Source: Candidatus Siliceabacter maunaloa
Lineage (GTDB): Bacteria > Actinomycetota > Thermoleophilia > Solirubrobacterales > Solirubrobacteraceae
Assembly (NCBI GenBank): GCA_024330185.1
Contig: JANDLV010000011.1
Location: 19,081 to 83,080 of the forward strand
Direction of reading: 5' to 3'
Length of the DNA: 64,000 bases
Shown: one piece after another, positions 2,054 to 25,174 of the stretch
Layout: each line of letters starts with the position of its first letter
Position numbering within the stretch: position 1 is the first letter of the stretch
Program-made: the position numbers and the translations under genes
The notes under the pieces: model-generated
What the model saw: the letters and a program-made list of their open reading frames with translations, nothing else
Told to the model about the DNA's origin: nothing
The model's database searches: none

Positions 2054-2902
2054 ATGACCATCGCCGACGCAGGAATCTTCACCATCGCCGACCGCACCGT
2101 CCATCGCCTCGGCTTCGGGGCGATGCGCATCACCGGGGAGGGCGTCTGGGGCCCACCCGCCGATCGCGAGCGGGCGCTCGCCGTGCTGCGTCGCTCGCGT
2201 GAGCTGGGCATCGACCTCATCGACACCGCCAACTCCTACGGGCCAGAGGTCAGCGAGGAGCTGATCGCGCAGGCGCTGCATCCGTACGACGAGAATCTGA
2301 CCATCGCCACCAAGGCCGGCCTCACCCGCTCGGGACCCGGCGGGTGGCACGCCGACTGCCGGCCCGAGTCGCTCAAGCACGAGTGCGAGGGCTCGCTGAA
2401 GCGCCTCCAGGTCGACAGCATCGACCTCTTCCAGCTCCACACCGTCGATCGCAAGGTTCCCTACGAGGAGTCGGTCGGCGCCCTCAAGGAGCTCCAGGAC
2501 GAGGGCAAGATCCGCCACATCGGCGTCTCCAACGTCTCCGTGGAGCAGTTGGAGCAGGCCCGCGGGATCGTCGAGGTCCACACCGTCCAGAACCGCTTCA
2601 ACCTCACCGACCGTGCTCACGAGGACGTCCTGGACCACTGCGAGCGCGAGGGGATCGGCTTCATCCCCTACTTCCCGCTGGCCGCCGGCGACCTCGCCAG
2701 CCCCGGCGGGCCCGTCGCCGAGGCGGCAAAGCGCCACGACGCCACACCGGGCCAGGTCGCCCTGGCCTGGCTGCTGGCGCGCAGCGACGTGATGCTGCCC
2801 ATCCCCGGCACCGGCTCGCCCGAGCACCTCGAGGAGAACGCCGGCGCCGGCGGACTGCGCCTGGAGGACGACGAGCTCAGGCGGCTCGAGCAGGCTGCCT
2901 GA
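2054..2902 (+). CDS. aldo/keto reductase family oxidoreductase
   Basis: 282 aa with [22 protein letters not shown] and IRHIGVSN motifs typical of AKRs. Confidence 0.85.
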
Positions 2903-5012
2903 GGGCGTCCGAGGCAGGCTCCGATGGGGGCGGGGCCTCCCCGCCTCCGTCCTCCCGGGCCAGGCGTGAGGGCCACCACACCTTCGGCCCGATGTCCAGC
3001 ACCAGCGCGGGCACGAGGATCGAGCGCACGACGAGGGTGTCCAGCAGCACGCCGAAGGCCACCACGAAGCCGATCTCGGTCAGGAAGACGAGTGGCAGCA
3101 CGCCCAGCGTCGCGAAGGTGCCGGCCAGCACCACGCCGGCCGAGGTGATGACCCCGCCGGTGACGGCCAGGCCGCGCTTCATGCCCTCGCGGGTGCCGTG
3201 GCGCTGCACCTCCTCGCGCACGCGGGCCATGAGGAAGATGTTGTAGTCGACCCCCAGGGCGACCAGGAAGATGAACGCGAACAGCGGGAACGACGGGTCG
3301 CTTCCGGGGAAGCCGAAGACCACGTCGAAGACGACCGCCCCGACGCCCATGGCCGCCAGGAAGGAGAGGACCACGGTGGCGATCAGCAGCGCGGGAGCCA
3401 GAAGCGAGCGCAGCAGCACCACGAGGATCACCGCCACGATGGCCAGCGCGATGGGGATCAGCAGCAGGGTGTCGTAGGCCGACGCGTCACGCAGGTCGTA
3501 CTCCACCGCCGTCGGGCCACCTACGAGCGCCCCGGGCGCCACCCCGCGAACCGCCTCGCGCAGCGGCGCGATCACGTCGAAGGCCTGCGTGCTGTAGGGA
3601 TCGAAGCGCAGCAGCGCGGCGAGTTGGACGGCCTGGTCGTCACCCGCGACCGGCTCGGGGGAGACCCCGGCGACGCCCGCGACCTGCGACGCGGCAGCCA
3701 CCACGGCGTCAACCTGCGAGGGGTCGCGTACGACGATGTCGGTCGGGGCCGACTGGCCCGACGGGAAGGCCTGGGCGATCAGCTCCTGGGCCTGCACCGA
3801 CTCGACCTCCCCGCGGAACGAGTTGGCCGTGGTCAGGCCGTTGGAGTAGTTGAGCAGGCCCAGCGCGAGGACGCCGAGCAGCACGGTGGTGCCCACGGCG
3901 ACCCGGCGCGGCGCGCGGCCGACCCGGTCGCCCAGGCGCCGCCAGGGCCCGTGCGTCTCGTCGGCGCCCCGGTCGCCGAAGTGGGGCACGAAGGGCCAGA
4001 ACGGGCGCCGGCCGACCACCGTGAGCAGCGCGGGCAGGAACGTCAGCATGGCGACCATGGCGATGAAGACGCTCAGCGCGGCCACCGGCCCCATGCCCGA
4101 GGTCCCGTTGACCTTGGCCAGGCTCAGCGACAGCAGCGCCACGGCGACGGTGAGCCCGGAGGCGACGATGGCCGGCCCGGCGCGCCGCAGGGCGAGCGCC
4201 ATGGCCTCGTGCTTGTCCTCGTGGCGGCGCAGCTCCTCGCGGTAGCGCGAGACGAGCAGCAGCGCGTAGTCGGTACCCGCTCCGAGCACCAGCACGGAGG
4301 CGATGGACGACGTCTGGCCGTTGACGGTGATGCCCAGCTCGGTGAGTCCGTAGCCCGCGCCGCGCGCGGCCAGCTCCGCCACGATCACCGCCAGCAGCGG
4401 GAACCACAGGAAGAACGGACTGCGGTAGATCAGGATCAGCAGCACGAAGACCAGCCCGCCGGCGGCCAGCAGCAGCGTCCCGTTGATGGAGGTGAAGATC
4501 TCGATGGCGTCGGCGCTGGCGCCCGCCGGCCCGCCGACCGCCGCCTGCAGCCCGTCGCCGCCCTCGACGACCGCCCGGTAGTCCTCGACGGGCTCGAGGA
4601 TGTCGTCGGACTCGCCGGTGGCCCGCAGCACGTTGGTCACCAGGGCGGTGGTCCCGTCGGGAGAGACCTCGGGGCCCTGGAAGGGCGTCGTGTTGGCGAA
4701 CCGCCCCGTCGCCGCGTTCAGGGCTTCGAGATCCTGCCCGATGGTCGCGCGGTCGGCGGCGGTCAGCCCGCCGTCGCGCTGGTAGACGACGACCGTGGGC
4801 GCCGACTCGGCGCCCTGCAGGCGCTTCGTGATCTCCAGCGCCGCTGTCGACTCCGCGTCGCCCGGCAGGAACGACGTCGACTCGTTCTGCTCGGCCTCGG
4901 TGTACTTGGCGGGCAGGCCGAGGGCGACGATGGCGAGCAGCGCCGCGAACCACACGGCGAGCACGACCCACTTGGAGCGCCGGCCGGCCGAGAGCGTCAG
5001 GAGCTTGGACAT
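2877..5012 (-). CDS. mmpL: MMPL/RND-superfamily membrane transporter
   Basis: ORF 2877..5066 has two 6-TM bundles each preceded by a soluble loop (MMPL layout) and a [13 protein letters not shown]-type motif. The likely start is ATG 5012 ([15 protein letters not shown]). It is divergent from the NRPS. Confidence 0.85.
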
Positions 5013-5249
5013 GGTGCGCGGCACTGTAACGGAGTCCAGATTCCGGTTGAGTGCGGTTACCCACACAATCTCGCCCGACGTAGGCCGCGGCGCGGCCGTC
5101 CACGGGCCGGCGGCCCTCGAGCAGGGGCACGTCGCCCGCCCGCGACGACGACATGGGGCCGGTGCGCGCCGCGCACGACGCGCGCCAGGGCGGCCTGCTC
5201 ACCGGCCGGGGCCCACGAGGGCCCGCGACGAGGGTCCGCGCCCTAACTC

Positions 5250-5278
5250 GTTAGGGCTTCCTAAGTAGGCTACCCTAA
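5250..5278. promoter_or_regulatory. two abutting IdeR/DmdR-type iron-box-like sites
   Basis: GTTAGGGCTTCCTAA (5250-5264) and AGTAGGCTACCCTAA (5264-5278) fit the core GTTAGGnnnnCCTAA of the TTAGGTTAGGCTAACCTAA consensus. The palindrome CCCTAActcgTTAGGG lies at 5241-5256. The sites sit between divergent mmpL and the NRPS. Confidence 0.5.
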
Positions 5279-5329
5279 GGCCATGGCTGGACCGGGGATC
5301 TGTCGCGTATTCAACAGAGAGAGCACCAC

Positions 5330-5383
5330 TTGACCGACCCGTTCGAGGACCCCCACGGCAACCGTCGCGCGCTCCCCGGCTAG
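5330..5383 (+). pseudogene. mbtH-like gene stub (17 codons)
   Basis: TTG ACC GAC CCG TTC GAG GAC CCC encodes (L/M)TDPFEDP, against MTNPFEDP for the intact mbtH at 24947. 21 of the first 24 nt are identical. It then diverges and stops at TAG 5381-5383, 15 nt before the NRPS ATG. Confidence 0.45.
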
Positions 5384-5397
5384 CGACCCCGAACGGA

Positions 5398-8300
5398 ATG
5401 GCGCAGTTTCTGACCACTGACCCGTCCGACCCGTCGTCCGCGCAGCAGCCGGTGCCCGAGCTGCGCAGACGGACCGTGTCGCTGTCGGCCCCGGGAGCGG
5501 CCGCGCTCGATGCCGCCGCACAGCGCTTCGCGACGCGGCCGGCGTGCATCGTGGCGGCAGCGGTCGCCGTGTACGTGTCGCGCATCGCCGGTCTGACGGA
5601 CGTCGCACTCGGGCTGGCCGACGACGCAGGCGACGGGGTCCGGACGCTGCGGGTCACGGTCCGTCCGCAAACGACCGTGGACGAGCTTATCGCGGCGGTC
5701 GCGCGCGCGGCCGCGGACCCCAACGCGCGCGCAGGCGAGGTCGCGGGGCCGATCGTAGCGCTCGTCCTGGCGGACGACAAGCCGCGCTTCGGCCACCACA
5801 CCGCCGCGGTCGGCGACCCGCCGACGGGTCCGCTCGACGACCTGTCGGTCGCCGTCCGCGCGGGCCGCTTGCCCGCCGCTGCGACGCTCGAGCTGTGCGC
5901 GGACGCTGAGGTCGTCGGCGCGGACGAGCTCGCCGACCACGAGCGGCGCCTGCTCGGCGTGCTGGACGCCGTCACCGGCACGGGCGGCATAGTCGTCGGT
6001 TCGATCGAGCTGCTCTCGCCGGACGAGCGGCGCACCGTGAGGCAGCTGTCGGGGCCGCCGCAGCGCGCCGTCGACGAGCTCACGTGGACCGCCGCGTTCG
6101 AACGCCGGGCCGCGCTCGATCCCGAGGCCGTCGCCGTGGTCTGCGAGGACGTCGAGCTGACCTACGGGCAGCTCGCCGAGCACGCCCGCGGGCTGGCACG
6201 CACGCTGCTCGCACGTGGCGTGGGTCACGAGGACGTCGTGGCGGTCGCGGTGCCGCGATCGGTCGAGATGGTCGTGGCGCTGCTGGGCGTGATGCAGGCG
6301 GGAGCCGCCTACCTGCCGCTCGACCTCGACCACCCGCCCGACCGCGTCGCCTTCATGCTGCGCGACTCCGGCGCGCGCATCGTCGTGACCGTCTCCGAGC
6401 TCGCCGGCGACCTGCCGGCGGTCGACGGGCTGCAGGCGCTGCTGCTCGACGATCTGCCGGAGGGCGACGAGAACCTCGACCTTCCCGGTCCACTCGTTCT
6501 CGAGCAGGCGGCCTACGTCATCTACACGTCCGGGTCGACCGGCCGCCCGAAGGGCGTCGTCGTGTCGCACGAGGGCATCGGCAGCCTGATCGCGACGGCC
6601 ATCGATCGCCTCGGCGTCGACGCCCGCAGCCGCGTGGCGCAGTTCGCCTCGATCGGCTTCGACGTCGCCGTCTGGGACCTGTGCATGACGCTCGGCGTGG
6701 GCGGCCGCGCCGTCGTCGTTCCCGATTCGAGGCGGGTCGCGGGCGCGCCGCTGACGGACTACCTCGTCGAGCAGCGGGTCACCCACATGATCCTGCCGCC
6801 CTCGCTGGTCGCCGCGCTGCCGCCGGACTGCCCGCTGCCGCAGGGCGCGGTCCTCGTGGTGGGAACGGAGACCGTGCAGACCGAGCTCGTCACCCGCTGG
6901 TCGCAGCGCCTGCGGGTCTTCGCCGCCTACGGGCTGACGGAGGCGACGGTCAACTCGACGCTGTGGCCGGCGCAGCCCGGCTGGGACGAGCCGGTGCCGA
7001 TCGGCCGGCCCGACCCGAACACCCGCGCATACGTCCTTGATACGGCACTGCGTCCGACCGCGGTCGGGGTCACCGGCGAGCTGTACGTCGGCGGCCGCGG
7101 GCTGGCGCGCGGCTACCTCGGCCGGACGGGCCTGTCATCGCAGCGCTTCGTCGCCGATCCGCACGGCCCGCCGGGCAGCCGCATGTACCGCACCGGCGAT
7201 GGGGCTCGCTGGCGGGCGGACGGCTCGCTGGACTTCCTCGGCCGCACCGACGGGCAGGTCAAGATCCGCGGCCATCGCATCGAACCGGGCGAGATCGAGG
7301 CGGTCCTCATGCGCCACCCCGGCGTCGCGCAGGCCGCGGTGATCGCACGCGAGGACCCACCCGACAAGAAGCGGCTCATCGGCTACGTGGTCTGCGGCGG
7401 CGACCCGCTCGACGCGGCCGCGCTGCGCGCGCGCGTCGCCCACCAGCTGCCCGAGCACATGGTCCCGTCGGCAGTCGTCGTCCTCGACGGGCCGCTGCCG
7501 TTGACGCCCAACGGCAAGCTCGATCGTGCGGCGCTGCCGGCGCCGGATTTCACCGCCCTGACGGGCGGCGCCGAGCCGCGCACGCCGGCCGAGCGCACGC
7601 TCGCGGCGCTGTTCGCGCAGACGCTCGGGCTGCCGCGCGTCGGTGTCCACGACGACTTCTTCGCGCTCGGCGGCGACAGCATCGTCGCCATCGGACTCGT
7701 CAGCCGTGCACGTCAGGCCGGGCTGGTGCTGCGGCCGCGCGACGTCTTCGAGCGGCGCACGGTCGCCGCGCTGGCCGCGGTCGCCCAGCAGCGCCAGGCG
7801 CGGTCGGTGGATCCCCGCGACGGGCTCGGCCGGGTCGCGCCGACGCCGATAATGCACTGGCTGCGCGAGCTCGGCGGGGCGATCGGCGGCTTCTACCAGT
7901 CGCTCCTTCTGCAGGCCCCGGACGGCCTGGGTCGTGAGCGGCTGGAGGCGGTTCTCCAGGCACTGCTCGACCACCACGACCTGTTGCGCGCGCGCCTGCG
8001 CCGCGACGACGGCTGGTCGCTGGAGGTGCCGGCGCCCGGGACGGTGCGGGCCGCGGATCTCGTCGCGATCGTCCACGTCGGTGACGGAGGCCTGCGTGAC
8101 GCGATCGCCGAGCAGACCGAGAGGGCGGCGGCACGGCTGGATCCCGATGGCGGTCGCATGGTACAGGTCGTGTGGTTGCACGCCGGTCCGTCGCAGCCCG
8201 GCCGGGTGCTGTTGCTGGTCCACCACTCGGTCGTCGACGGCGTCTCGCTGCGGATCCTGATGACCGACCTCGCCGACGCGTGGGAGGCGATCGCCGCCGG

Positions 8301-9285
8301 CCGCGCTGCGTGCCCGAATGCCGTCGAAACGTCGTTTCGCCGTTGGTCGGAGCTGCTCTCGCAGACGGGGCGCAGCGGAGCGCGCGCCGGCGAGCGCGAG
8401 CTCTGGTTGCAGGCCGCCAACGCCTCCGACCCCTTGCTGGGCGCCCGCCGCCTGGACCCCGGGCGCGACGTCGTCGGCAGCTCGCGCACGCTGACGGTGT
8501 CCCTGCCCGCCGAGCAGACCGCCACGCTGCTGACCACCGTGCCGGCGCTCTACGGGGCGACCGTCAACGACGTGCTGCTGACCGCCCTGGCGGTCGCCGT
8601 CGGACGCTGGCGCGAGCAGCGCGGCCGCCGGACCACCCCCGAGGTCGTCGTCGATCTGGAGGGCCACGGCAGGGAGGACGTCTTCGACGACGTTGATCTC
8701 GCGCGGACCGTCGGCTGGTTCACGACGCTGTTCCCGGTTCGCCTGGACCCCGGTGCCGTCGACTGGGAGGCGTTGTGTCGCGGCAAGCCGGCCGCCGGGC
8801 ACGCGCTGCGGCGCGTCAAGGAGCAGCTGCGTTCGCTGCCCGACCGCGGCCTGGGCTACGGCATCCTGCGACACCTCGACCCCGGCGCGCGCGAGCAGCT
8901 CGCCGCCGCGCCCGCCCCACAGATGCTCTTCAACTACCTCGGCCGCTTCGCGGTGCAGGACGGCACGCCATGGACGCCCGCACCCGAGGCGCCCCCGCTC
9001 GGCGACGTGCGCGATCCGCAGATGCCGATGGGACACGTGCTCGACGTCGACGCCGTCGTGAGCGACGACGACGACGGGCCACGCCTCAGCACGGTCTTCG
9101 CCTGGCCGCGAGAGGTCTTCTCGGAGGCCGAGATCGCCGCTCTGGGCGAGCTGTGGCTCGAGGCGCTCGCCGGGCTGCACGCCCACGCCGGCGAGCCCGG
9201 CGCCGGCGGGCACACGCCGTCGGACTTCCCGCTCGTGACGCTCGATCAGGCCGAGCTCGACGGCTTCGCGGCGTCGGTCACCGAG
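5398..9285 (+). other. NRPS module 1: truncated C (aa ~25-215), A1, T1 (Ser761), E1 (His942-943)
   Basis: The N-terminus aligns only with the post-HHxxxDG half of C domains. LTYGQL is at aa 254, the A3 core at aa 377, NGKLDR at aa 705, FFALGGDS at aa 755-761, and HHSVVDGVS follows. Confidence 0.8.
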
Positions 9286-12200
9286 CTGGAGGACGTCCTG
9301 CCCGCGACAGCGCTGCAGGAGGGGTTCTTCTTCCATGCCCTGGCCGACGAGGACGCCCGGGACGTCTACCTCGTCCAGCAGCGCATCGATCTCGCGGGCC
9401 CGCTCGACGCCGCGGCGCTGCGGGCCGCGGTGCACGACCTGCTCGATCGCCACGCGCTGCTGCGCGCGGCATTTCGTCAGCGCGCCGACGCGCACGTCGT
9501 GCAGCTTATCGGGACGGGGATCGAGGTCCCGTGGCGCGAGGTCGATCTGCGCGGCGAGGATGAGGGCGAGCGCGCGGCTCGCGCCGAGGCGCTGGCGGTG
9601 CAGGAGGGCGCGCAGCGCTTCGACCTCGCTCGCCCGCCGCTGATCCGCTGCACGCTGATCGCGCTGGGCGACGAGCGCCATCGACTGCTCGTCACGCTGC
9701 ACCACATCCTCGCCGACGGCTGGTCGGAGGCGGTCATCGTGCGCGACCTGCTGGCGCTATACGCGCCCGACGGCGAGGCCCCGCCGCTGCCCGCCATCAC
9801 GCCGTACCGCCGCTACTTCGCCTGGCTCGCCGACCAAGACCGCGCCGCGGCCGCCGACGCCTGGCGGGCCGCGCTCGCCGACCTCGACGAGCCGACGCGC
9901 ATAGTGGCCGACGATGCGCCGGCGACCGCGCTGCGCTTCGAGGAGGTCCGCGCCGACCTGTCCGAGGAGCTGACCGCGGGGCTCGTCGCGAGCGTGCGCG
10001 AGCACGGCATCACGCTGAGCACGGCCGTTCAGGGCGCCTGGGGCCTGGCGCTGGGGCACCTCACGGGTCGCGAGGACGTCGTCTTCGGCACGACGGTCTC
10101 CGGCCGTCCGCCGGAGATCGAGGGCATCGAGGAGCTCGCGGGCCTGTTCATCAACACGCTGCCGGTCCGCGTGCGCTGGCGTGCCGGTCAGCCCCTCGGC
10201 GATGTCCTGGTCGAGCATCAGCTCGCGCAGGCCGACCTGCTCGATCACCAGCATCTCGGCCTGGCGGAGATCCAGCGGCTCACCGGGCGTGGCGAGTTGT
10301 TCGACACGCTGCTCGTCTTCGAGAACCAGCCGCCCAGCGACGCGGTCGGCCGCGTCGCGGGCGGCCTCGAGGTCACGGGGTTCCAGACGCTCGACTCCGA
10401 TCACTATCCGCTCGCCTTCGTCGCCACCCCGGGCTCGCGTCTGCGGCTGTTGCTCAAGCACGACGTCGATCGCTTCGCGCCCGAGGAGGCCCGCCGGATC
10501 CTTGCGCGGGTCGTCGCGCTGCTCGAGGCGGTCGTGGCCGATCCGGGACGGCCCGCCGGACGGGTCGACCTGCTGACCGAGGCGGAGCGCGAGCGCTTGC
10601 TGGAGGCCTGGACGGGCCCCAGCCTCGAGGTCGCCCAGCCGACGGTGCACGCGGCGTTCGCCGCGCAGGCGGCGCGGACGCCGGACGCAACGGCGGTCGT
10701 CGACGGCGACGAGGGGCTGACCTACGCGCAGCTCGACCGGCGCGCCGAGGCGCTTGCCGCGCGCCTGCGTGCAGCGGGCGCGGGCCCGGAGCAGGTCGTG
10801 GCGGTCGCGGTTGCGCGGTCGGCGTCGCTGATCGTCGCACTGCTCGGCGTGCTCAAGGCGGGAGCGGCGTACCTGCCCGTCGATCCGTCCCATCCGCCGG
10901 CGCGGCGAGCCTTGGTGGTGGCCGACTCCGGCGCCCGCCTGGTGGTGGCGATGACGGCGGACGCCCCGCAGTTGCCGGAGGTCGAGGGCGTGCGGGTGCT
11001 GGCACTCGACGCCGACGGCGGGCAGCCGGAGCATGTCGAGGGCCCGATTCCGACGGGCGCTGAGGCGCGTGCGCTGAACGCCGCCTACTGCATCCATACG
11101 TCGGGCTCCACGGGGCGGCCCAAGGGCGTCATCGTCAGCCATGGCGCGATCCTCAGCCAGCTCGCGTGGGTGCAGCGCGAGCTGCCCCTCGGCGCCGGCG
11201 ACCGCGTGCTCGCCAAGGCCCCGACGAGCGTCGACGTCAGCCTGCTGGAGACCCTGTGGCCGCTGTGCGCCGGCGCGGCCGTCGCCGTCGCGCCCGCCGA
11301 CGCGCACCACGACCCAGTCGCGTTGGCCGAGCTGGTTCGCGAGCACCGCGTCACGACGATGAGCTTCTCGCCGTCGATGCTCGACGCGTTCCTGCGCGCG
11401 ACCGAGGGTGCGGACGCCGTGGCGAGCCTGCGACACGCCTTCTGCGGCGGCGAGGCGCTGCACGCGGGGCTCGCCGATCGCTGGCGCGACCAGACCGGCG
11501 TCCCGCTGTACAACGCCTACGGACCGACCGAGGCCGCGATCCAGGTCACCTGCTGGGAGCACGCCGGCGGTTGCGCCGACCCCGTGCCGATCGGCCGCCC
11601 GGTGGCCAACACCGGCCTGCGGATCCTCGACGGCGCCCTGCGCCCGGTGTCGCCCGGAACCGCGGGCGAGCTGTACCTCGCCGGCACGCAGCTCGCGCGC
11701 GGCTACCACGGCCGGCCCGACCTGACCGCGCAACGCTTCGTCGCCGACCCCTTCGGCGTGGCCGGCGAGCGGATGTACCGCACGGGCGACGTCGCGCGCG
11801 ACCGCGGAGACGGGGCGATCGAGTACCTGGGGCGCACCGACGACCAGGTCAAGATCCGCGGCAACCGCGTCGAGCCCGGCGAGGTCGAGGCGCTGCTCGT
11901 GCGCGAGGACGGCGTCGCCCAGGCGGCGGCGATCGTGCGCTCCGACGGTCCCGGCGAGGCGCGGCTGGTCGCCTACGTCGCCGCCGTTCCCTGGCGCCGG
12001 CCGGACCCCGAGGAGCTGCGCGCCGCGCTGGCCACGGCGCTGCCCGAGGCGATGGTCCCGGCCGCCGTCGTCGTGCTCGACGAGCTGCCGCTGGCGCCGT
12101 CGGGAAAGGTCGACCGCACGGCGCTGCCGGCGCCGGTCCCCGGGCGCCGCGACCTGCGGGCACCGGCCGACGAGCGTGAGCGGCTGCTGTGCGAGATCTT

Positions 12201-15200
12201 CGCCGCCGTCCTGGGCCTCGACGAGGTCGGTCCCGACGAGGACTTCTTCGTGCTGGGCGGCGACAGCATCCTCTCGATCTCGGTCGCGATCGCCTCGCGC
12301 AAGGCCTGGCTGCAGCTCGCGCCGCGCGACGTGTTCCGCGAGCGCACCCCGGCCGCGCTGGCGCTGCACGCGGCAGCCGCGACACCGGCCGAGGCGCCCG
12401 ACCGCGGGCCGGTTGCCGGCGACGGCGTCGGTCACGTCGTGCCGCTGCCGGTCGTGCACCACCTGCGCGAGAGCGGTGGCCCGATCGGCCGCTTCAACCT
12501 GTCCCTGCTCGTCCAGGCCCCCGTGGGCGCGCGACTCGACGAGCTCGCCGCGGTGCTGCAGGCGGTGCTCGACCATCACGACGCCCTGCGCCTGCGCCTG
12601 AACCGGTTCGCCGGGGTGCTGTGGTCGCTGGAGACGCTCGCGGTCGGCGCGGTGCGGGCGGCCGACCTGCTGCGCCGGGTCCACGTCGACGACAGCGCGC
12701 CGGACGCGCTGCGCGCGGCGATCGCCGCGGAGTCCGACGCGGCGGTCGGCCGGCTGGACCCCGATGCGGGGCGGATCCTCGAGGCGGTGTGGTTCGACAC
12801 CGGCCCGCGGTCGCCCGGCCGGCTGCTGCTGGCGGCTCATCACCTGGCGGTCGACGGCGTGTCGTGGCGGATCCTGCTCGACGATCTCGCCGCCGCCTGG
12901 GACGCGGTGCACGCCGGCGAGCCCCCCGCGCTGGAGCCGGTCATGACGTCGCTGCGCAGGTTCGCGCGCATCGTCGACGAGCAGGCCGGGGCTCCGCAAC
13001 GCCTCGCCGAGCTCGAGCACTGGCGCGCGACGCTCGCACCCGGCGCCGACCTGCGGCCCGGCACGCGCGTCGACGCCACCGCCGCGGACGCCGTCGCGGA
13101 CACGATCGTCCTGTCCGCGCAGGAGACGGCCCCGCTGCTGACGACCGCCCCCGCCGCCGCGGGCGCCGACGTCACCGAGCTGCTGCTCGCGGCGCTGCGC
13201 ATGGCGGTCAGCCGCTGGCAGGCCGGACGCGGAAGCGATGGCGGGGCCGACATCCTCGTCCACCTCGAGCGCCACGGCCGCGAGCCGATCGCGGGGGCCG
13301 ACCTGTCGCGTACGGTGGGCTGGTTCACGACGATCCATCCGGTGCGTCTCGCGGCCGGCGGGGACGCGCTCGAGGTGCTCAGGAGCGTCAAGGAGCGCGT
13401 GCGCCGGGCGCCCGACGGCGGCATCGGCTACGGCATGCTGCGCTACGCCAACGCGCAGGTCGCCCCGTTGCTCGCGCAGGCCGAGCGCCCCCAGATCCTC
13501 TTCAACTACTACGGGCGCTTCCCCGCCGGCCCAGGCGCCGACTGGATGCCGGCGCAGGAGACCGGCGCGCTCACCGTCGCCCCCGACGGCGGGCTGGGCC
13601 TGCCCTACCTGCTGCAGCTCGACGTCGTGTGCGCCGACGAGCCGACCGGTCCGCGCCTGAGCGCGACCTGGACGCGCACGCAGGGCGGGCTGTCCGCGAG
13701 CGACGTGCAGGAGCTGCGCCAGGGCTGGCGCGACGCGCTGTGCGAGCTCGCGGTGCTCGCCGCCGACCGCGTCGCCGGCGGCTTCACGCCGGCGGACCTC
13801 ACCACCGTCTCGCTGACGCAGGAGCAGATCGACCGCGTGCAGCGCGCGAGCCCGTTGGCGATCGAGGACATCTGGCGGCTCTCGCCGCTGCAGGAGGGCC
13901 TGTACTTCCACGCGACGTTCGACGAGGGTGAGCTCGATGTCTACACGGCGCAAACCTCGCTGGACTTCACGGGCGGGATCGACGTCGAGCGCCTGCGCGC
14001 GGCGTGCGCGGCTCTGCTGGCGCGCAACGCGAGCCTGCGGGCGGGGTTCATCAGCGACGGCCTCATCCAGCCCGTCCAGTTCATCGCCCGCGAGCCGCAG
14101 ACGCCGATCGACGTCGTCGACCTCTCCGAGCCCGAGCCGGCGGCGCGGCGGGCGCGGCTGTCGGAGCTGATGTCCGCCGATCGCACGCGCCGCTTCCACC
14201 TCGCGCGCCCCCCGCTGCTGCGCATGCTCGTGGTGCGCCTCGGGGACGGTCGCGACCGGCTCGTGATCACCAACCACCTCGTGCTGTGGGACGGCTGGTC
14301 ACAGGGAACGTTCCGCGATCAGCTGCTCGCGCTCTACGAGCGCGCCGGCGACGACGGCGGGCTCGATCCGCCCGGCTCCTACCGCGACTACCTGGCGTGG
14401 CTGTCCGAGCAGGACGAGGCCCGTGCCGCAAAGGCCTGGCGCGAGGCGCTCGCGGGCATGGCGGAGCCGACGCTCGTCGGGCCGGTCGACCGCACCGCGC
14501 GGGCGATGATCCCCCAGAGTTGCCGCGTGACGCTGTCGCGCGAGCTCAGCGAGCGGCTGCGTCGCCAGGCTGGGCGCCACGGGGTGACGCTGAACACCGT
14601 GCTGACCGCGGCCTGGGGACTCGTGCTGTCCAGCGAGCTCGGGCGCGACGACGTCGTCTTCGGCGTGACCGTGACCGAGCGCCCCGCGGAGGTCTCCGGC
14701 GTCCAGGACACGATCGGGATGTTCATCAACACCGTGGCGGTGCGGGTGAGGCTCGACCCGCGCGAGCCGGTGGGCGAACTGCTGGGGCGCCTGCAGTCCG
14801 AGCGCGCGGCGCTGATGGAGCACGACCATCTGGGGCTCGGGGCCGTCCAGCGCGAGACCGGCCACGCGCAGCTGTTCGACACGCTGTACGTGCTGCAGAG
14901 CTTCGCCGGCGGCGACGACGAGGCGCTCGCCGAGGTGCGCGAGCGCCACGGCGTCGACGTCGTCGACTCCGTCGACGCGACCCACTATCCGCTGACCCTG
15001 GTCGTGACCCCGGGCTCGCGCCTGCGCGTGATGCTCGACCACCGGCAGGACCTCTTCGACCGCGAGGCCGCCGAGACGCTCGTGGCGCGCTTTGCGACCG
15101 TGCTCGAGCAGCTCGCCGGCGATCCGTGCGCGCTCGTCGGCAGTCTCGATCTGCTGGCGCCCGCCGAGCACCGGCGGCTGGAGGCGCGAACCGGCACGAC

Positions 15201-17070
15201 CGGTCACGAGCTCGGCCGGGACACCGTCGCCGACCTGCTCGACGCGCAGTCGCTGCGCACACCCGGCGCGACCGCGCTCGTGTGCGGTGACGAGTCGCTG
15301 ACCTCCGAGCAGCTGGCGGGGCGAATCCATCGCCTCACGCGCCTGCTGCTCACCCGTGGCGTGGGGCCCGAGGATGTCGTCGCGCTCGCGCTGCCGCGCT
15401 CGACGGACATGGTCGTCGCGCTGTTCGCCGTGCTCGCGACGGGCGCCGCCTACCTGCCGCTGGACCTCGACCACCCTGCCCAGCGACTCGAGCTCATGCT
15501 GCAGGACGCGGTGCCCGTCCTCCTGCTGTCCACCGCGAGCAGGGCTTCGTCGCTGCCGGCGGCCGGCGTCGAGCGCCTGCTGCTCGACGAGGCAGAGGTC
15601 CTCGGCGAGCTGGACGCGCTGCCCGGCGGGACGCTCGCGGACGCCGAGCGACCCGCGTTCGCGCGCTCGCTGGCCCATCGCCTCGGGCACGTGGCCTACG
15701 TGATCTACACCTCCGGCTCCACCGGGCGGCCGAAGGGCGTCGCGACGGCGCACCGCGGGCTGACGAACATGCAGCTCAACCACCGTCGCGAGATCTTCGC
15801 CCCGGTCGTCGCGGCCGCCGGCGGGCGGCGCCTGCGGATCGCACACACGGTCTCGTTCTCGTTCGACATGTCGTGGGAGGAGCTGCTGTGGCTCGTCGAG
15901 GGCCACGAGCTGCACGTCTGCGACGAAATCCTGCGCCGCGACGCCGAGGAGCTGGTCGCCTACTGCGCGCGCCACCGCATCGACGTCGTCAACGTCACGC
16001 CGACCTACGCGCACCACCTCATCCAGCAGGGCTTGCTCGAGGGCGAGGTCGATCGCGCGCACCCCCGTCCGGCCCTCGTCCTGCTCGGAGGCGAGGCGGT
16101 GCCCGACAGCGTCTGGTCGCAGCTGCGCGACACCGGCGGCACGCTGGGCTACAACCTCTACGGGCCGACGGAGTACACGATCAACGCGCTCGGCGCCGGG
16201 ACCGCCGACAGCGCCTCGCCGACGATCGGGCGGCCGATCCGCAACACGCGCGCCTACGTGCTCGACGGCTGCCTGCGGCGCGCGCCGATCGGCACCCCGG
16301 GCGAGCTGTACATCGCCGGGGTGGGGCTCGCGCGGGGCTACCACGGCAGCTTCGACCGCACGGCCGAGCGCTTCGTCGCCGACCCGCTCGCAACGGAGAC
16401 CGGCGCGCGGATGTACCGCACGGGCGACCTCGTGCGCCTGCGCGCCGACGGCACCATCGATTTCCTGGGCCGCACCGACGACCAGGTGAAGATCCGCGGC
16501 CATCGCGTCGAGCTGGGCGAGATCGAAGCCGTGCTCGACGCGCATCCGGACGTCGCGCACGCGGCCGTGATCGCCGACGGCGACGCCCCCGGATCGATCA
16601 AACGTCTCGTCGCGTACGTCGTCGCCCAAGCCGGCGCCTGGGACGACGACGAGGCCGCCACGGGCCGTCTGCGCGCCCACCTCAAGGATCGGCTGCCCGA
16701 CTACATGGTGCCGGCGGCGCTGATGGCGGTCGACGAGCTGCCGCTGACCGTCAACGGCAAGCTCGACATCGCCGCGCTCCCCGCCGCGACGATCGTCGCC
16801 GACAGCTCCGGGCGTGCCCCCACGACGCGCGAGGAGGAGGTGCTCAGCGAGCTGTTCACCGACGTGCTCGAGCTCGGCCACGTGGGACTCGACGACGGCT
16901 TCTTCGACTTCGGCGGACACTCGCTGCTGGCGATCCTGCTCGTCGGGCGCGCGCGCACCGCGCTGGATGTCGCGCTGACGGTGCGCGACCTCTTCGAGGC
17001 GCCGACGGTCGCGGGACTCGCCGCACGCGTCGCGGCGCGCAGGGCCGACGGCGGGGCGCAGAGCTCGTGA
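5398..17070 (+). CDS. non-ribosomal peptide synthetase, 3 modules: (C-terminal half of C)-A-T-E-C-A-T-E-C-A-T
   Basis: 3890-aa ORF. Three adenylation cores [10 protein letters not shown] start at nt 6526, 11098 and 15709. The PCP serines are GGDS at 7678, GGDS at 12265 and GGHS at 16921. Epimerase HHxxxDG motifs are at 8221 and 12838. Condensation motifs are HHILADG at 9700 and NHLVLWDG at 14272. The protein ends 48 aa after the last PCP serine. Confidence 0.97.
9286..13860 (+). other. NRPS module 2: C2 (DCL-like, His1435-1436), A2, T2 (Ser2290), E2 (His2481-2482)
   Basis: [51 protein letters not shown] and HHLAVDGVS appear in that order. Confidence 0.8.
13861..17067 (+). other. NRPS module 3: C3 (Asn2959-His2960), A3 (hOrn-type code), T3 (Ser3842)
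   Basis: [47 protein letters not shown] and FFDFGGHS are present. No TE, R or terminal C domain follows. Confidence 0.8.
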
Positions 17071-17843
17071 GCGCCGCCGAGCTCGACCGGTGGGTCCGCC
17101 GCCACCGGCCCGCTTCTGCGGGCCGGCGGCCGCTCGTCTGCTTCCCGCCGGCCGGCGCCGCTGCGAGCTTCTTCCTCGAACTCGCCGCCGCCGCCCCCGC
17201 GGGCGTCGATCCCTGGGCGCTCGTCTACCCGGGCCGCGAGGTCCGCATCCCCGAGCCGCCGCTGACGGAGATGACCCAGCTCGCGAACGCCGTCGCGTCC
17301 GTGCTGGCGCCGACGCTCGACGAGCCTGCGATCCTGCTCGGCCACAGCATGGGCGCGTCCGTCGCCTTCGAGGCCGCACGCGAGCTGGACCGCCTGCGGC
17401 CCGGCTGCGTCGTGCACCTCATCGTCTCCGGTCGCGCCGGCCCGGCCGGCGGCGGGCCGCGCCCGCCCGTCGCGCCGCCGACCGACGAGGAGCTCGTCGC
17501 CGGGCTGCGTATGCTCGGCGGCACGCCGCCGGAGATCTTCGACTCGCCCGACATGCTCGAGCTGCTGCTGCCGCCGATGCGCCACGACTACGACCTGCTC
17601 GCGCGCTACCAGCCGCGCTGGCTGCCGCCGCTGGCGATCCCGATGACCGCGCTGGTCGGCGACGCGGATCCGACAGTCGGCATCGACGCGGTGCGTGCGT
17701 GGAGCGAGGTCTGCGACGCGGCCTTCACGGCCCGTGAGGTCGGGGGAGGCCACTTCTACCTGCAATCGAGCGCCGACGAGGCGGCGTACGCCGTCGCCGA
17801 CGCGCTCGCCGGCGCCGACGTCCTCGCAGCCGAAGGCGCGTGA
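17067..17843 (+). CDS. type II thioesterase (alpha/beta hydrolase)
   Basis: GTG 17067 overlaps the NRPS TGA (GTGA). Motifs: [14 protein letters not shown], the GHSMGA nucleophile elbow, and GGHFYL near the C-terminus. Confidence 0.85.
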
Positions 17844-19537
17844 GCCCCGGCGCGCTGCGCATCGCGCACGGCGGGGTGCTGCGCGGCGCGATCTGGGGTC
17901 AGCGGCGGCGCGTCGCGATCGGTTCGGCGCTGCTGATCGCCCACCAGGCCGGCGAGGCGATGGTGCCCGTCATCGTGGGCGCGACGATCGATCGCGCGAT
18001 CGTCACCGGCGACGCCGGTGCGCTCGGGGTCTGGCTGGGTGTGCTCGCCGTGACGTTCGCGGTGCTGTCGGTCTCCTACCGCTTCGGCGACCGCTTCGTC
18101 GAGCGTGCATCGCAGACCGCGGCGCACGACCTGCGACTCGCGCTCACGCGCCGCATCCTGCATCCCCGCGGCGGCGCCGCGGAGGGCCGGCCGTCCGGCG
18201 GGCTGCTGAGCATCGCCACCTCCGACGCCTCGCGCGTCGGCGAGGTCAACGTCGTCATCGGCGTCGGCGCCTCGGCCGTCGCCGGGATCACGGTCGCCGC
18301 TGCCGCGCTGCTGCAGATCTCGCTCGTGCTCGGGGCGCTCGTGCTCGTCGGGCTGCCGCCGCTGCTCGTGCTCATCCACCTGCTCGGACGCCCGCTCGTC
18401 CGGCGCGCGGCCTCCGAGCAGGCCGAGGCGGCCGGCGCGACCGGCGTCGCCGCAGATCTCATCGCCGGGCTGCGCGTGCTGAAGGGGATCGGCGCCGAGT
18501 CCGCGGCGATCGAGCGCTACCGCGACTCGAGCCGCCGGTCTCTGGCCGCCACGCTGCGCGCGGCGGGCGCCGAGGCCACCGTCGCGGGCGTCGGCATCCT
18601 GCTGACCGGTGCCTTCCTCGCCCTCGTCGCGCTGATCGGCGGGCGCCTGGTCGCCGACGGGAGGATCGAGCTCGGCGAGTTCATCGCAGCCGTCGGGCTG
18701 ACGGGCTTCCTGACCGGCCCGCTCTCGTTGAGCTCGTACGTCGTCTTGGACCTCGCGCGGGGGCGCGCCTCGGCCGGCCGCGTCGCCGGACTGCTCGACA
18801 GCCCCGTGGCCGTGACGGGAGGAACGCGGGCGCCGTCGCCGCCGCCGGCCGGGGCCGTCGCGCTGCGAGACGTGCGCCATCGCGGGCTGGACGGGCTGAA
18901 CCTCGAGATCAGCGCCGGCGAGCACGCCGCGATCGTCGCGACCGACGCCGCCGACGGCGCCGCGCTCGTCGAGCTGCTGGCCCGCGCGGCGGACCCCCAG
19001 GCGGGCTCGGTGCAGCTCGACGGCGTCGCCTACACCGAGCTCGATCCCGACCTGCTGCGCGCCGTCGTGCGCGTCTCCGCCCACGACGCCGAGCTGTTCG
19101 ACGGCAGCCTGAGCGACAACCTGCGCGCCGCGGCGCCCGGGGAGCGCGTCGACGCCGCGCTCGTCGCGGCCGACGTGGCGGACGTCGTGGCGGCCCTGCC
19201 CGGCGGGCTGGACGCCACGCTGGGCGAGCGCGGGCGCTCGCTGTCGGGAGGCCAGCGCCAGCGCGTCGCGCTCGCGCGCGCGCTGGCCGCCGACGCCGCG
19301 GTGCTCGTCCTGCACGACCCCACGACCGCGGTCGACGCGGTGACCGAGGCGCGCATCGCCGCGCGCGTCCGTGACCTGCGTGCCGGGCAGACGACGATCG
19401 TCGTCACGAGCAGCCCGGCCCTGCTCGCCGCGGCCGATCGCGTCGTGCTGCTCGCCGGCGGGCGGGCCGGCGCGACCGGCTCGCACATGCAGCTGATGCA
19501 TCGGGACGCCCATTACCGCGCGGCGGTGCTCGCGTGA
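17840..19537 (+). CDS. ABC transporter permease/ATPase fusion (exporter fold) with degenerate NBD
   Basis: 565 aa with an N-terminal 6-TM domain. The signature [15 protein letters not shown] is intact. Walker A is replaced by [13 protein letters not shown] (nt 18932-18970), Walker B reads VLVLHDPT, and the H-loop His is absent. The start overlaps the thioesterase stop. Confidence 0.85.
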
Positions 19538-21291
19538 CGCTCGCCTACGAGCAGCTGCCGGTCGCCGCCGCGCCCCAGACGCGCCGCGCCGCGCTCGCCC
19601 TCGCGCGCCCCAGACGGCTCGCGCTGGCAGCGGCGGCCGCGCTCGTCGTGGGGACCGCCGCCGGTCTCGCGGTCCCGGCGATCCTCGGCCACATCGTCGA
19701 TCTCGTCACCGACCGGCGCGGCGTCGCGGAGCTGACCGGGCCGGCGATCCTCCTGCTGGCCGCGGCCGTCGTGCAGGGCGTGCTGACGGCAGTCGGCCAG
19801 GCGCTCGTGGCCCGCCTCGGCGAGGGCGCGCTCGCCGAGCTGCGCGAGCGCGTCGTCGAGCGGGTGCTGATGTTGCCGCTGCAGCGCATCGAGCGTGCCG
19901 GCAGCGGCGATCTCGTCGCGCGCGTCAGCGACGACGTGGCCGAGATCGCCGAGGCCGTCCGGCAGGCGCTGCCGCGGATGGCGAGCTCTGCGCTGATCGT
20001 GGGGCTGACGCTCGTCGGACTGGCGGCGCTCGACTGGCGCCTCGCGCTGGCAGGGCTCGTCGCGGTCCCGATCCAGGCGCACACGCTGCGCTGGTACCTG
20101 CGCCACTCGGCGCCGGTCTACGCGGCCGAGCGCCGCGCCGCGGCGGCACGGGCGCAGCAGCTGCTGGACTCGGTCTCGGGCGCCGGGAGCGTGCGGGCGT
20201 TCGGACTCGCACCGGACCACATCGCGCGCGTCGAGCGGCGCTCCTTGGACGCGCTTGCGCTCACGATGCGAGCCGTCAATCTCATCACCCGCTTCTTCGC
20301 GCGGCTGAATGCCGCCGAGCTGCTCGGGGTCGCCGCAATCCTCTCGACCGGCTTCGTGCTCGTGCGCTCCGGCCAGATCACGGTCGGTCAGGCGACTGCC
20401 GCGGCGCTCTACTTCATCCGCCTGTTCGATCCGATCAACATCCTGCTCGCGCTGGTCGACGACGCCCAGCGCGCGGGGGCGAGCCTCAGCCGACTCGTCG
20501 GGGTCACCGCCATGGACCCGCCCGACGAGCCGCCGGCGCCGCCGCGCCCGGCGGATGCCTCGGTCGTACTGCAGGACGTCCGGCACGCGTACGTCAGCGG
20601 CTACGACGTGCTCGACGGCATCGACCTGGAGATCCGGCCCGGTGAACGAATCGCGCTGATCGGCGTCAGCGGCGCGGGCAAGACGACGCTCGCGCGCGTC
20701 GTCGCGGGCATCCAGCGTCCGACCGCGGGCCGGGTCCTGCTGGGCGGCGTCGAGCTCGCGCAGCTCGGGCGCGCCGCTACCGCGCGCAGCGTCGGTCTCG
20801 TGAGCCAGGAGGTGCACGTGTTCGCCGGCACGCTGGCCGACGACCTGCGCATGGCGCGCTCGTCCGCCGGCGACGACGAGCTCGCCGCGGCGCTCGAGCG
20901 CGTCGGCGCGCTGGAATGGGTGCGCGCGCTGCCCGACGGCCTGGCGACGGCCGTCGGGGACGGAGGGCAGCGGCTGACGGCGCAGCGAGCGCAGCAGCTC
21001 GCGCTGGCGCGCATCGTCCTCGCCGACCACCCGATCGTGATCCTCGACGAGGCGACGGCCGAGTCGGGCAGCACCGGCGCCCGCGCGCTCGAGGCGGCGG
21101 CGGCCGCGGCGCTCGAGGGCCGCACGGCGCTCGTCGTCGCGCACCGCCTGACGCAGGCGGCGGCGGCCGACAGGGTCGTCGTCATGGAGTCCGGGCGCAT
21201 CGTCGAGCAGGGCACGCACGCGGACCTCGTCACCGCTGACGGGCCGTACGCCGCGCTGTGGTCCGCATGGTCCGATGGACGCAACGCGTGA
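19534..21291 (+). CDS. ABC transporter permease/ATPase fusion (exporter fold) with consensus NBD but degenerate signature
   Basis: 585 aa with Walker A GVSGAGKTT, Q-loop VSQE, Walker B IVILDEAT and H-loop VVAHRL. The signature motif reads LTAQRAQQ instead of LSGGQ. The gene overlaps the upstream ABC gene by 4 nt. Confidence 0.9.
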   Translation: MTLAYEQLPVAAAPQTRRAALALARPRRLALAAAAALVVGTAAGLAVPAILGHIVDLVTDRRGVAELTGPAILLLAAAVVQGVLTAVGQALVARLGEGALAELRERVVERVLMLPLQRIERAGSGDLVARVSDDVAEIAEAVRQALPRMASSALIVGLTLVGLAALDWRLALAGLVAVPIQAHTLRWYLRHSAPVYAAERRAAAARAQQLLDSVSGAGSVRAFGLAPDHIARVERRSLDALALTMRAVNLITRFFARLNAAELLGVAAILSTGFVLVRSGQITVGQATAAALYFIRLFDPINILLALVDDAQRAGASLSRLVGVTAMDPPDEPPAPPRPADASVVLQDVRHAYVSGYDVLDGIDLEIRPGERIALIGVSGAGKTTLARVVAGIQRPTAGRVLLGGVELAQLGRAATARSVGLVSQEVHVFAGTLADDLRMARSSAGDDELAAALERVGALEWVRALPDGLATAVGDGGQRLTAQRAQQLALARIVLADHPIVILDEATAESGSTGARALEAAAAAALEGRTALVVAHRLTQAAAADRVVVMESGRIVEQGTHADLVTADGPYAALWSAWSDGRNA

Positions 21292-24850: not shown

Positions 24851-24869
24851 AGCGGTTAGGATACCCTAA
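24851..24869. promoter_or_regulatory. iron-box-like site upstream of mbtH/N-hydroxylase operon
   Basis: AGCGGTTAGGATACCCTAA matches the IdeR/DmdR consensus at 14/19 by hand. A second weaker copy, ATTAGGCAGCCCTAC, is at 24786-24800. Confidence 0.55.
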
Positions 24870-24946: not shown

Positions 24947-25174
24947 ATGACCAACCCGTTCGAGGATCCCGGTGGCACGTACGTCGTGCTCATCAACGAC
25001 GAGGGGCAGCACTCGCTGTGGCCGTCGTTCGTCGCGGTGCCGGCCGGCTGGACGGTGGCGCACGGGGAGAGCTCCCGCAGCGCATGCCTGGACTACGTCA
25101 ACGAGAACTGGACCGACCTGCGACCCGCCAGCCTCATCCGGAGCATGGACAGTGGCGCCCGTCATACCTCGTAA
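24947..25174 (+). CDS. mbtH: MbtH-like protein
   Basis: [35 protein letters not shown] carries the full MbtH signature. This is an internal ATG of ORF 24884..25174, preceded by GAAGAGGGGAGA. Confidence 0.9.

Follow-up and report, generated by a model that had tools for sequence, protein, structure and literature searches.

An mbtH-like leader fragment and a decayed half condensation domain at the head of a siderophore synthetase gene in Candidatus Siliceabacter maunaloa

We analysed a window of 64,000 nucleotides from contig JANDLV010000011.1 of Candidatus Siliceabacter maunaloa, and the present report concerns the 5' end of one gene in it, which encodes a nonribosomal peptide synthetase (NRPS) of 3,890 aa (5398-17070, plus strand) in a hydroxamate-siderophore cluster. 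Two relics stand at this 5' end. One is a short open reading frame (ORF) in front of the NRPS, here called the stub, which resembles the beginning of the mbtH gene of the same cluster. The other is the C-terminal half of a condensation (C) domain, with which the NRPS itself begins. On balance we think it probable that the two descend from mbtH and from a starter C domain, that the stub now acts as a leader upstream ORF (uORF) for the NRPS, and that both have been eroded stepwise in a clade of related clusters.

The stub lies on the plus strand at 5330..5383 and has 17 codons and a TAG. It opens with TTG ACC GAC CCG TTC GAG GAC CCC, and nucleotides 5330-5353 are identical at 21/24 positions to codons 1-8 of the intact mbtH, start codon on start codon, just as the first-pass annotation had reported. 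The intact gene (24947-25174, plus strand; Pfam MbtH, PF03621, E 1.5e-28) is the sole copy in the genome, according to a tblastn search of the whole genome with MbtH. Within the window the 24-nt match is the only one with three or fewer mismatches, and 100 shuffles gave none; genome-wide, over 7.6 million positions, a random coding 24-mer has a mean of 0.26 extra matches at the same threshold. The match is significant by its location and not alone, because it is aligned on the start codon, stands behind a purine-rich Shine-Dalgarno (SD) stretch and lies 68 nt before the ATG of an NRPS in the same cluster. In translation the opening LTDPFEDP, against MTNPFEDP in the intact protein, falls under the N-terminal pattern M-(S/T)-N-P-F-(D/E)-(D/E) of MbtH. 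Compared with MbtH-like proteins (PF03621), the stub thus opens like the cluster mbtH, with its start codon and M-T-(N/D)-P-F-E-D-P, but the MbtH core of about 53 residues with SxWP and GW is missing and the ORF ends after 17 codons. Lacking the SxWP...GW core it cannot fold or bind an adenylation (A) domain, and because the core is missing the stub is a gene fragment and not a member of the MbtH family. A gapped local alignment suggests that its homology to mbtH may reach codon 15 (CTC). A W-x-S-F match in the stub frame past the stop (TEWRSF vs SLWPSF) was dropped as statistically unsupported.

Is the stub a private scar of this genome? Homologous uORFs were found in front of the orthologous NRPS genes on two metagenome contigs, L034 and L050 (40 and 29 codons); with that of the window there are three such uORFs, and all are offset from the NRPS in the +2 frame. 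The uORF of L034 reads ATG ACA GGC CGC TTC GAG GAC CTC GAA CGC ACG GTC, and agrees at 18/24 positions with the stub of the window and at 17/24 with the mbtH of the window; it retains TTC GAG GAC, and also codons 11 and 13 of mbtH (ACG, GTC), which are lost from the window stub. The uORF of L050 has no PFED codons and shares CCCACGGCAACC with window 5351-5364. The start-aligned match together with these homologous uORFs supports a derivation of the stub from the 5' end of mbtH. Relatives conserving the short ORF without mbtH homology, which the first-pass annotation had named as evidence against its view, were found by half: L034 keeps MT..FED, and L050 keeps the uORF and has lost PFED. The stub matches the mbtH of its own genome at 21/24 positions and the mbtH of genome G167 at 20/24 (after the 9-nt insertion of the latter). 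Being equally like the two, it bears no sign of recent intragenomic copying, and concerted evolution of the stub with its own mbtH was rejected on the same numbers. Since the stub is common to lineages whose first A domains (A1) are only 78-80% identical to that of the window, the event behind it was neither recent nor private. From these sequence comparisons the stub appears to be an old shared feature made of mbtH sequence, and neither a private recent scar nor an assembly artefact.

The second relic is the decayed C-terminal lobe of a starter C domain, which occupies NRPS residues 24-215 (5467..6042, plus strand). By BLASTP these residues match residues 226-446 of P0100, a Streptomyces NRPS of 4747 aa that opens with a full starter C domain, at 42% identity (E 2e-64). 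The alignment is colinear into the A domain, and its two gaps fall on the regions of motifs C5 and C6, which are thus deleted. As had been proposed, there is no HHxxxDG half; the first HHxxxDG of the protein occurs at residue 942, in an epimerization (E) domain. When 1.84 billion proteins were searched exhaustively with phmmer there were 79 matches, nearly all of which place residues 17-230 on C-domain positions ~215-455. An AlphaFold (AF2) model of residues 1-232 (pLDDT 73.6) was compared with the PDB by Foldseek, and all matches were C domains. The best was C1 of the CDA synthetase (PDB 4jn5, E 2.6e-11), with a TM score of ~0.6 on the query and 0.33 on the 435-residue target, i.e. about half a domain. 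The scan with a condensation profile, which the first-pass annotation had advised for finding the truncation point, gave a mixed outcome: Pfam PF00668 had no match to residues 1-239 at E <= 1, and the homology and fold of the C-lobe were found by the other searches. NCBIfam MxcG matched in part, residues 116-196 to model positions 340-420 (E 2e-8). Since the Pfam model misses this region, the C-lobe remnant is to be regarded as degenerate.

The half C domain is nevertheless still read as protein and is under relaxed but non-zero purifying selection. Its ratio of nonsynonymous to synonymous substitution rates is 0.47-0.63, compared with 0.26-0.32 for A1 and the thiolation-epimerization (T-E) region in the same pairs, and its G+C at third codon positions is 0.91. 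With the N-lobe gone and the C5 and C6 regions deleted, it is predicted to be unable to catalyse condensation. Its frame has to be kept open, since translation passes through it to reach the A domain, and it may also persist as a scaffold packing against the A domain. Work on the ThdA remnant names the C-lobe as the part of the C domain that contacts the A domain (PMC7253712, citing Meyer et al. 2016). The same paper describes truncated, inactive C* remnants at the N-terminus of loading modules, e.g. in ThdA of the thermoactinoamide synthetase. The window prefix belongs to this type, having the C-lobe only, at the extreme N-terminus and immediately before the first A domain; like the remnant of ThdA it is presumed inactive. 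It differs in that it falls in a series of orthologues leading from a full starter C domain to remnants of 225, 215, 165, 70 and 35 aa, and in that C5 and C6 are already deleted. Starter C domains (CDA synthetase C1, 4jn5; RzmA, 7c1h) are its best structural matches and its full-length sequence relatives carry a starter C domain with HHxxxDG, whereas the window protein has the C-lobe only and no catalytic His motif.

Orthologues were gathered by A1 similarity, by a metagenome scan for the double iron box TTAGGGnnnCCTAAGTAGGnTnnCCTAA and by an exhaustive protein search, and the identities given here are those to the window A1; L034, L033 and L051 are contigs without a usable A1. The half C domain is 215 aa long in the window and about 225 aa in both L034 and L050 (A1 78%). 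No stub precedes the NRPS in L033, in which the half C domain is present, in G198/L025 (A1 80%; ~165 aa), in L051 (~70 aa, frameshifted) or in G167/L004 (A1 79%; ~35 aa only). The protein P0012 (A1 80%) has ~35 aa before its A domain. Counted over the seven orthologous promoters of the window, L034, L050, L033, G198, L051 and G167/L004, the stub is present in 3/7, and in the other four the NRPS ATG comes right after the same ribosome-binding site. The half C domain begins at the same lobe boundary in every clade member that has it, and from there it appears to shrink stepwise by in-frame deletions, from ~225 aa to 35 aa.

The A1 tree splits {window; (L050, P0012); (G198, G167)} from the other relatives with support 98/94. 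The two pairs are supported at 100/100 and 99/98, and the three lineages form an unresolved trichotomy. Because P0012 is sister to L050 and G167 is sister to G198, the half C domain has been lost at least twice independently. The closest A1 domains outside the clade have 66-72% identity. One group there consists of NRPSs with a full starter C domain, from Streptomyces, Couchioplanes, Saccharopolyspora and others, and a second group has no starter C domain (G096, G054/G188, Umezawaea) or a short one (P0004). Since lineages with no or a short C domain exist outside the clade too, this NRPS family has shed the starter C domain on several occasions. Independent loss or truncation was likewise noted from the A1 tree for the proteins P0004, P0135 and P0132 and the loci L018, L019 and L027; the remnant of P0004 (~106 aa) starts at the same lobe boundary as that of the window, yet groups outside the window clade. 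The NRPS of L051 (140-1710 and beyond, ENA contig_33043) is split into several ORFs by frameshifts in the half C domain and A1, which reflect either long-read sequencing errors or a decaying pseudogene. The close taxonomic relatives of the source genome are mostly without the cluster: 40 of them have no NRPS N-terminal region, and the orthologues in 151 scanned genomes of the same family are all stub-less and C-less.

There is a further question, what does a gene fragment do in front of the NRPS? As the first-pass annotation had seen, the stub precedes the NRPS closely: its TAG ends at 5383, a spacer of 14 nt without a usable SD follows (5384..5397, plus strand), and then comes the ATG at 5398. 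Over the clade the leader can be aligned from the double iron box through a GGGGATCTGyCG-like stretch and TTCrAC to a purine-rich SD, which ends in GAGC and is followed after 0-5 nt by a start codon. In the window this SD-like stretch is AGAGAGAG (5316..5323, plus strand), 6 nt 5' of the stub TTG, and by its position in the alignments it is the homologue of the SD used directly by the NRPS ATG of stub-less orthologues. At the homologous start position, the NRPS begins in the four stub-less orthologues (ATG GCC in G198, G167 and L051; ATG GGA in L033), and the short +2-frame ORF begins in the window, L034 and L050. The NRPS of the window starts with ATG GCG at +68 from the stub start, which matches the ATG GCs of the stub-less genes G198, G167 and L051, and continues with a low-complexity N-terminal tail (5398..5466, plus strand).

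The duplex energies with the anti-SD sequence differ between the two kinds of start. On a background of -3.5 +/- 2.6 kcal/mol, they are -5.7, -9.4 and -11.6 kcal/mol before the stub starts of the window, L034 and L050, and -1.5, -3.0 and -6.6 kcal/mol before the NRPS starts behind these stubs; before the NRPS starts of stub-less orthologues they range from -5.9 to -12.6 kcal/mol. Judged by these energies, the SD before the stub would be the sole plausible ribosome entry site for the window NRPS. The distances are those of re-initiation, with a gap of 14 nt in the window and with the uORF TGA overlapping an NRPS-frame TTG as TTGA in L034 and L050. From this geometry we infer that ribosomes would load at the SD before the stub and translate the short ORF; after termination, 14 nt short of the NRPS ATG, which has no SD, they would re-initiate at this ATG. 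The stub would then be a leader uORF that hands ribosomes to the NRPS, its peptide being irrelevant, and it most likely survives in this predicted role. The arrangement is that of translationally coupled gene pairs and short uORFs, in which an SD stands before the short ORF and none before the main ORF, and the stop is near the second start or overlaps it as TTGA. It differs from dedicated regulatory leaders in that the putative uORF is recycled from a gene fragment and its peptide is not conserved. A programmed frameshift from the stub into the NRPS frame was rejected, there being no slippery heptamer and the NRPS frame having its own conserved ATG GCs. Folding of the leader RNA gave z = +1.5, less stable than the shuffles. 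A long-range helix of 12 bp is predicted between 5286-5298 and 5371-5384 (GCUGG.CCGGGGA with CUCCCCGG.CUAGC); the SD and the entire stub would lie inside it.

The N-terminal tail of the NRPS bears a second, weaker mbtH-start-like repeat, which runs from CTG 5410 as CTG ACC ACT GAC CCG TCC GAC CCG TCG. The window and L034 agree in where this second start-like element lies, exactly 80 nt downstream of the stub start, and in the +2 frame offset; in L034 the element is ATG CCC TCG GAT, the called NRPS start. Because the NRPS N-terminus bears such a repeat, a single step does not suffice for the history. No origin could be assigned to the ~64 nt that separate the mbtH-like part of the stub from the NRPS N-terminal repeat. 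The tails of the NRPSs (window; G167, MANPSDSSAHA; L034, MPSDQSD; L051, MAVKDQPDTS) are built from the 9-nt unit rAC-CCG-TyC, the one that encodes N-P-F of MbtH, and the NRPS start of G167 matches its own mbtH start at 19/24. The NRPS N-terminus may thus also descend from the 5' end of mbtH, for which the low-complexity units are suggestive only; alternatively the 5' ends of NRPS and mbtH may have exchanged sequence. A tail derived in frame from mbtH would fit the idea of a fusion in the first-pass annotation, with the tail and not the stub as the fused piece. As a separate observation, the mbtH genes of G167 (L022, minus strand) and G198 (L046, minus strand) carry N-terminal extensions of tandem units, MPNPS-NPFEDP and VSDPSAPSDAS-NPFEEP, and the NPF-related 9-nt units of these extensions also form the NRPS tails in the window, L004, L034 and L051.

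How did stub-bearing and stub-less promoters arise from each other? Both relics would predate the window genome, the clade having eroded its leader and N-terminus step by step. Probably the ancestor of the clade already had the stub, and some lineages would have lost it through a deletion from one to the other of the short direct repeats NTG-rCC-(rAC CCG TyC); such a deletion would restore the SD and its start codon to the NRPS frame. Deleting 5336-5418 from the window gives TTG ACC GAC CCG TCC GAC..., which is essentially the G167/L004 form ATG GCC AAT CCG TCT GAC. The stub occurs in two of the three lineages of the A1 trichotomy, and 2/3 of the resolutions favour an ancestral stub.

Several points weigh against the account favoured here. 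No relative was found with an intact mbtH at the position of the stub. The tail of the stub (5363-5397) scores below the shuffle mean against mbtH, and homology past codon 8 is statistically weak. Neither the uORF peptide nor its stop position is conserved between the window and L034 or L050. The window stub has a weak start (TTG) and an SD that is only moderate, and L050 has a fair SD before its called NRPS start, such that coupling may be dispensable in places. Conservation of the ORF is not evidence of selection either, because ORFs of 17-40 codons persist by chance in DNA of 73% G+C. Finally, gain and loss of the stub are both possible, and the sequence TTCAACAG before the SD fits either.

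Gain is the essence of the first alternative. Here the ancestor of the clade would have been stub-less, and the common ancestor of the window, L034 and L050 would have received a short tract copied from the 5' end of the mbtH in its own cluster. Inserted at the NRPS start, the tract would have pushed this start 68-80 nt away; gene conversion or template switching, with priming by the shared NTG-rCC-rAC-CCG-TyC microhomology, could account for the insertion. Such a history would explain why the four stub-less orthologues have ATG GCs or ATG GGA right behind the homologous SD while the window keeps ATG GCG at 5398. Direct repeats do flank the indel. Ahead of the SD, TTCAACAG is common to the window and L034, and most stub-less members read TCGACsGAG there. 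On the other hand, the mbtH-like nucleotides make up only ~24-45 of the 68-80 extra ones, the stub-bearing lineages span the root of the clade in 2/3 of the resolutions of the trichotomy, and the near-equal similarity of the stub to the two mbtH genes gives no sign of a recent copy. We regard this insertion as possible, and unlikely in comparison with the loss of an ancestral stub.

The idea of the first-pass annotation is the other alternative of some weight. Made more exact, it would be that an mbtH gene formerly lay between the iron-box promoter and an NRPS of the type C-A-T..., and that one deletion, with one end at mbtH codon 12-15 and the other halfway along the C domain, made the stub and the half C domain at once and brought the NRPS under control of the mbtH promoter. 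In its favour, the two relics are real and lie side by side, the half C domain of the clade starts at one common lobe boundary wherever it is present, and the NRPS tail carries mbtH-start-like 9-nt units, as would follow from a fusion of the mbtH 5' end with the C domain. That the promoter and 5' part of the NRPS operon have been remodelled, as that annotation had supposed, is also clear. The undeleted arrangement of mbtH and NRPS that it called for, however, was not found among the 40 close relatives, the 151 genomes of the same family or the full-C relatives that were read. The upstream gene is a periplasmic binding protein gene in L002, L042 and L043, which have a full C domain, and in L044 and L045, which have no starter C domain. 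In the latter four loci mbtH lies immediately downstream of the NRPS, with stop and start overlapping (L042:18241-18450; L043:17539-17733; L044:19886-20095; L045:16139-16348). The stub is moreover out of the NRPS frame, and lies ~100 nt from the C-homologous part, with the second start-like repeat in between. The two relics also vary independently among the orthologues: L033 and G198 have the half C domain without the stub, G167 has neither, and L034 and L050 have both. For this reason, and for want of an extant undeleted form, one event is not demonstrated, and we consider a one-step origin rather doubtful. The overlap of mbtH with the NRPS stop in the wider family suggests translational coupling of that pair. 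It was further noted that a JGI gene model, P0063, has MbtH fused to the C-terminus of the NRPS, and that in the window clade mbtH has been relocated to the head of the ornithine-monooxygenase operon.

The remaining alternatives are weaker. An mbtH-like opening (start, ACC/GCC and rAC-CCG-TyC units) heads both iron-regulated transcripts, the units recur at both places in related genomes, in the mbtH extensions of G167 and G198 and at the NRPS start of G167, and one may suppose that it is a maintained shared cis element instead of debris, which could be a small-RNA target or a translation-initiation module co-regulating MbtH and its NRPS partner; we give this little credence. Still a little less probable is that the stub is a tandem duplicate, namely the first 80 nt of the NRPS itself gone out of frame, with the likeness to mbtH a coincidence of low-complexity D/N-P-S/F coding. 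TTGACC GACCCGTTCGA (5330-5346) does resemble CTGACC(ACT)GACCCGTCCGA (5410-5429), and the spacing of 80 nt is found in the window and L034. But the two 80-nt segments are unrelated past the first 15-18 nt, TTC GAG GAC CCC fits mbtH and not the NRPS copy TCC GAC CCG TCG, from which conversion needs seven directed changes, and L034 independently retains TTC GAG GAC and the mbtH-like ACG and GTC. A false short ORF made by mis-assembly or a sequencing frameshift is hardly credible, even in a metagenome-assembled genome that is a 3.79-Mb draft of 120 contigs, given that two independent metagenome contigs (L034, L050) have a uORF at the homologous position with the same +2 offset, L034 with the 80-nt spacing as well, and that the NRPS frame is intact behind both.

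The promoter in front of the stub is shared by the clade. A pattern search for the core TTAGGnnnnCCTAA with at most one mismatch found 6 sites in the window against 0.07 expected, all of them ahead of cluster genes, and palindromes of this type have the form of IdeR/DmdR iron boxes and are predicted regulator sites. As the first-pass annotation had stated, the stub and mbtH each stand behind such boxes, and a purine-rich SD precedes the stub. An abutting pair of IdeR/DmdR-type boxes (TTAGGGCTTCCTAA, GTAGGCTACCCTAA; 5251..5278, plus strand) lies in the divergent MMPL-NRPS promoter, and a single box (24856..24869, plus strand) precedes the operon of mbtH and ornithine monooxygenase. The double box is also present upstream of the orthologous NRPS genes of L004, L025, L033 and L034, and the promoter with two boxes is common to a clade of uncultured actinobacterial clusters. 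Paralogy of the 5' untranslated regions of NRPS and mbtH was rejected, as the iron box alone aligns and the common CTGyCG motif is too short. An identical double iron box, TTAGGGAGnCCTAAGTAGGCTCCCCTAA, stands ahead of a lipoprotein gene in nine unrelated metagenome contigs (L029-L032, L036-L039, L041), and contig L031 has a similar lipoprotein gene behind a slightly different box. The lipoprotein begins MRRNTRLAVPAIALALGAGLLAGCGG...LAPVKTYLT.H and could be an EfeO/imelysin-like component of iron uptake. Since the double box also precedes lipoprotein genes, the two-box architecture is a regulatory module that has been used repeatedly, not one peculiar to the NRPS. The neighbours of the promoter are tRNA genes in G167 and G198 (L004:1-300, L025:690-870), the MMPL gene in the window and a pntA-like gene in L034; the unit of promoter and NRPS sits at a variable edge of the cluster.

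The cluster as a whole spans 2877-26504 of the window, which is actinobacterial DNA of 72.8% G+C, and its genes were assigned with Pfam. An MMPL transporter (2877-5066, minus strand) is transcribed divergently from the NRPS. The NRPS consists of the prefix of 215 aa followed by A-T-E-C-A-T-E-C-A-T (6043..17070, plus strand). Behind it are two ABC half-transporters (17840-21291, plus strand), a formyltransferase (21430-22437, plus strand), a periplasmic binding protein (23282-24379, minus strand), mbtH and an ornithine N-monooxygenase (25191-26504, plus strand). A trimodular NRPS of this domain order together with formyltransferase, ornithine N-monooxygenase and MbtH marks a coelichelin-type cluster, with the product predicted from the genes. 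In the coelichelin cluster of Streptomyces coelicolor, CchH is a trimodular NRPS, CchA a formyltransferase, CchB an ornithine monooxygenase and CchK an MbtH-like protein. We take the domain order of the window NRPS and its set of accessory genes to be the same as there (CchH-like), and the two clusters are presumably alike in control by iron boxes, too. The window cluster adds the half-C prefix, the stub, a divergent gene for an MMPL exporter and the position of mbtH at the head of the monooxygenase operon.

What do these relics mean for the evolution of such synthetases? The stub and the half C domain are ordinary evolutionary debris, and neither a new mechanism nor a new kind of system; truncated C* remnants before loading A domains are already known (PMC7253712), and gene fragments and short uORFs are commonplace. 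What is new is descriptive, namely a series in which the natural erosion of a starter C domain can be followed, with losses that recurred independently, and an mbtH fragment that is predicted to hold now the ribosome-binding site of the synthetase. The series gives the order in which a starter C domain is shed: the N-lobe goes first, and then the C-lobe shrinks by in-frame deletions while it stays fused to the A domain throughout. It thereby bears on where loading modules may be cut in engineering, that is, on how much loss of the C-lobe an A domain tolerates. The leader, on its part, suggests that a fragment of a neighbouring gene can come to hold the ribosome-binding site of a synthetase of such length. 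Gene callers will mis-start genes led by such stubs, and in heterologous expression the removal of an apparent 'junk' leader could abolish translation.

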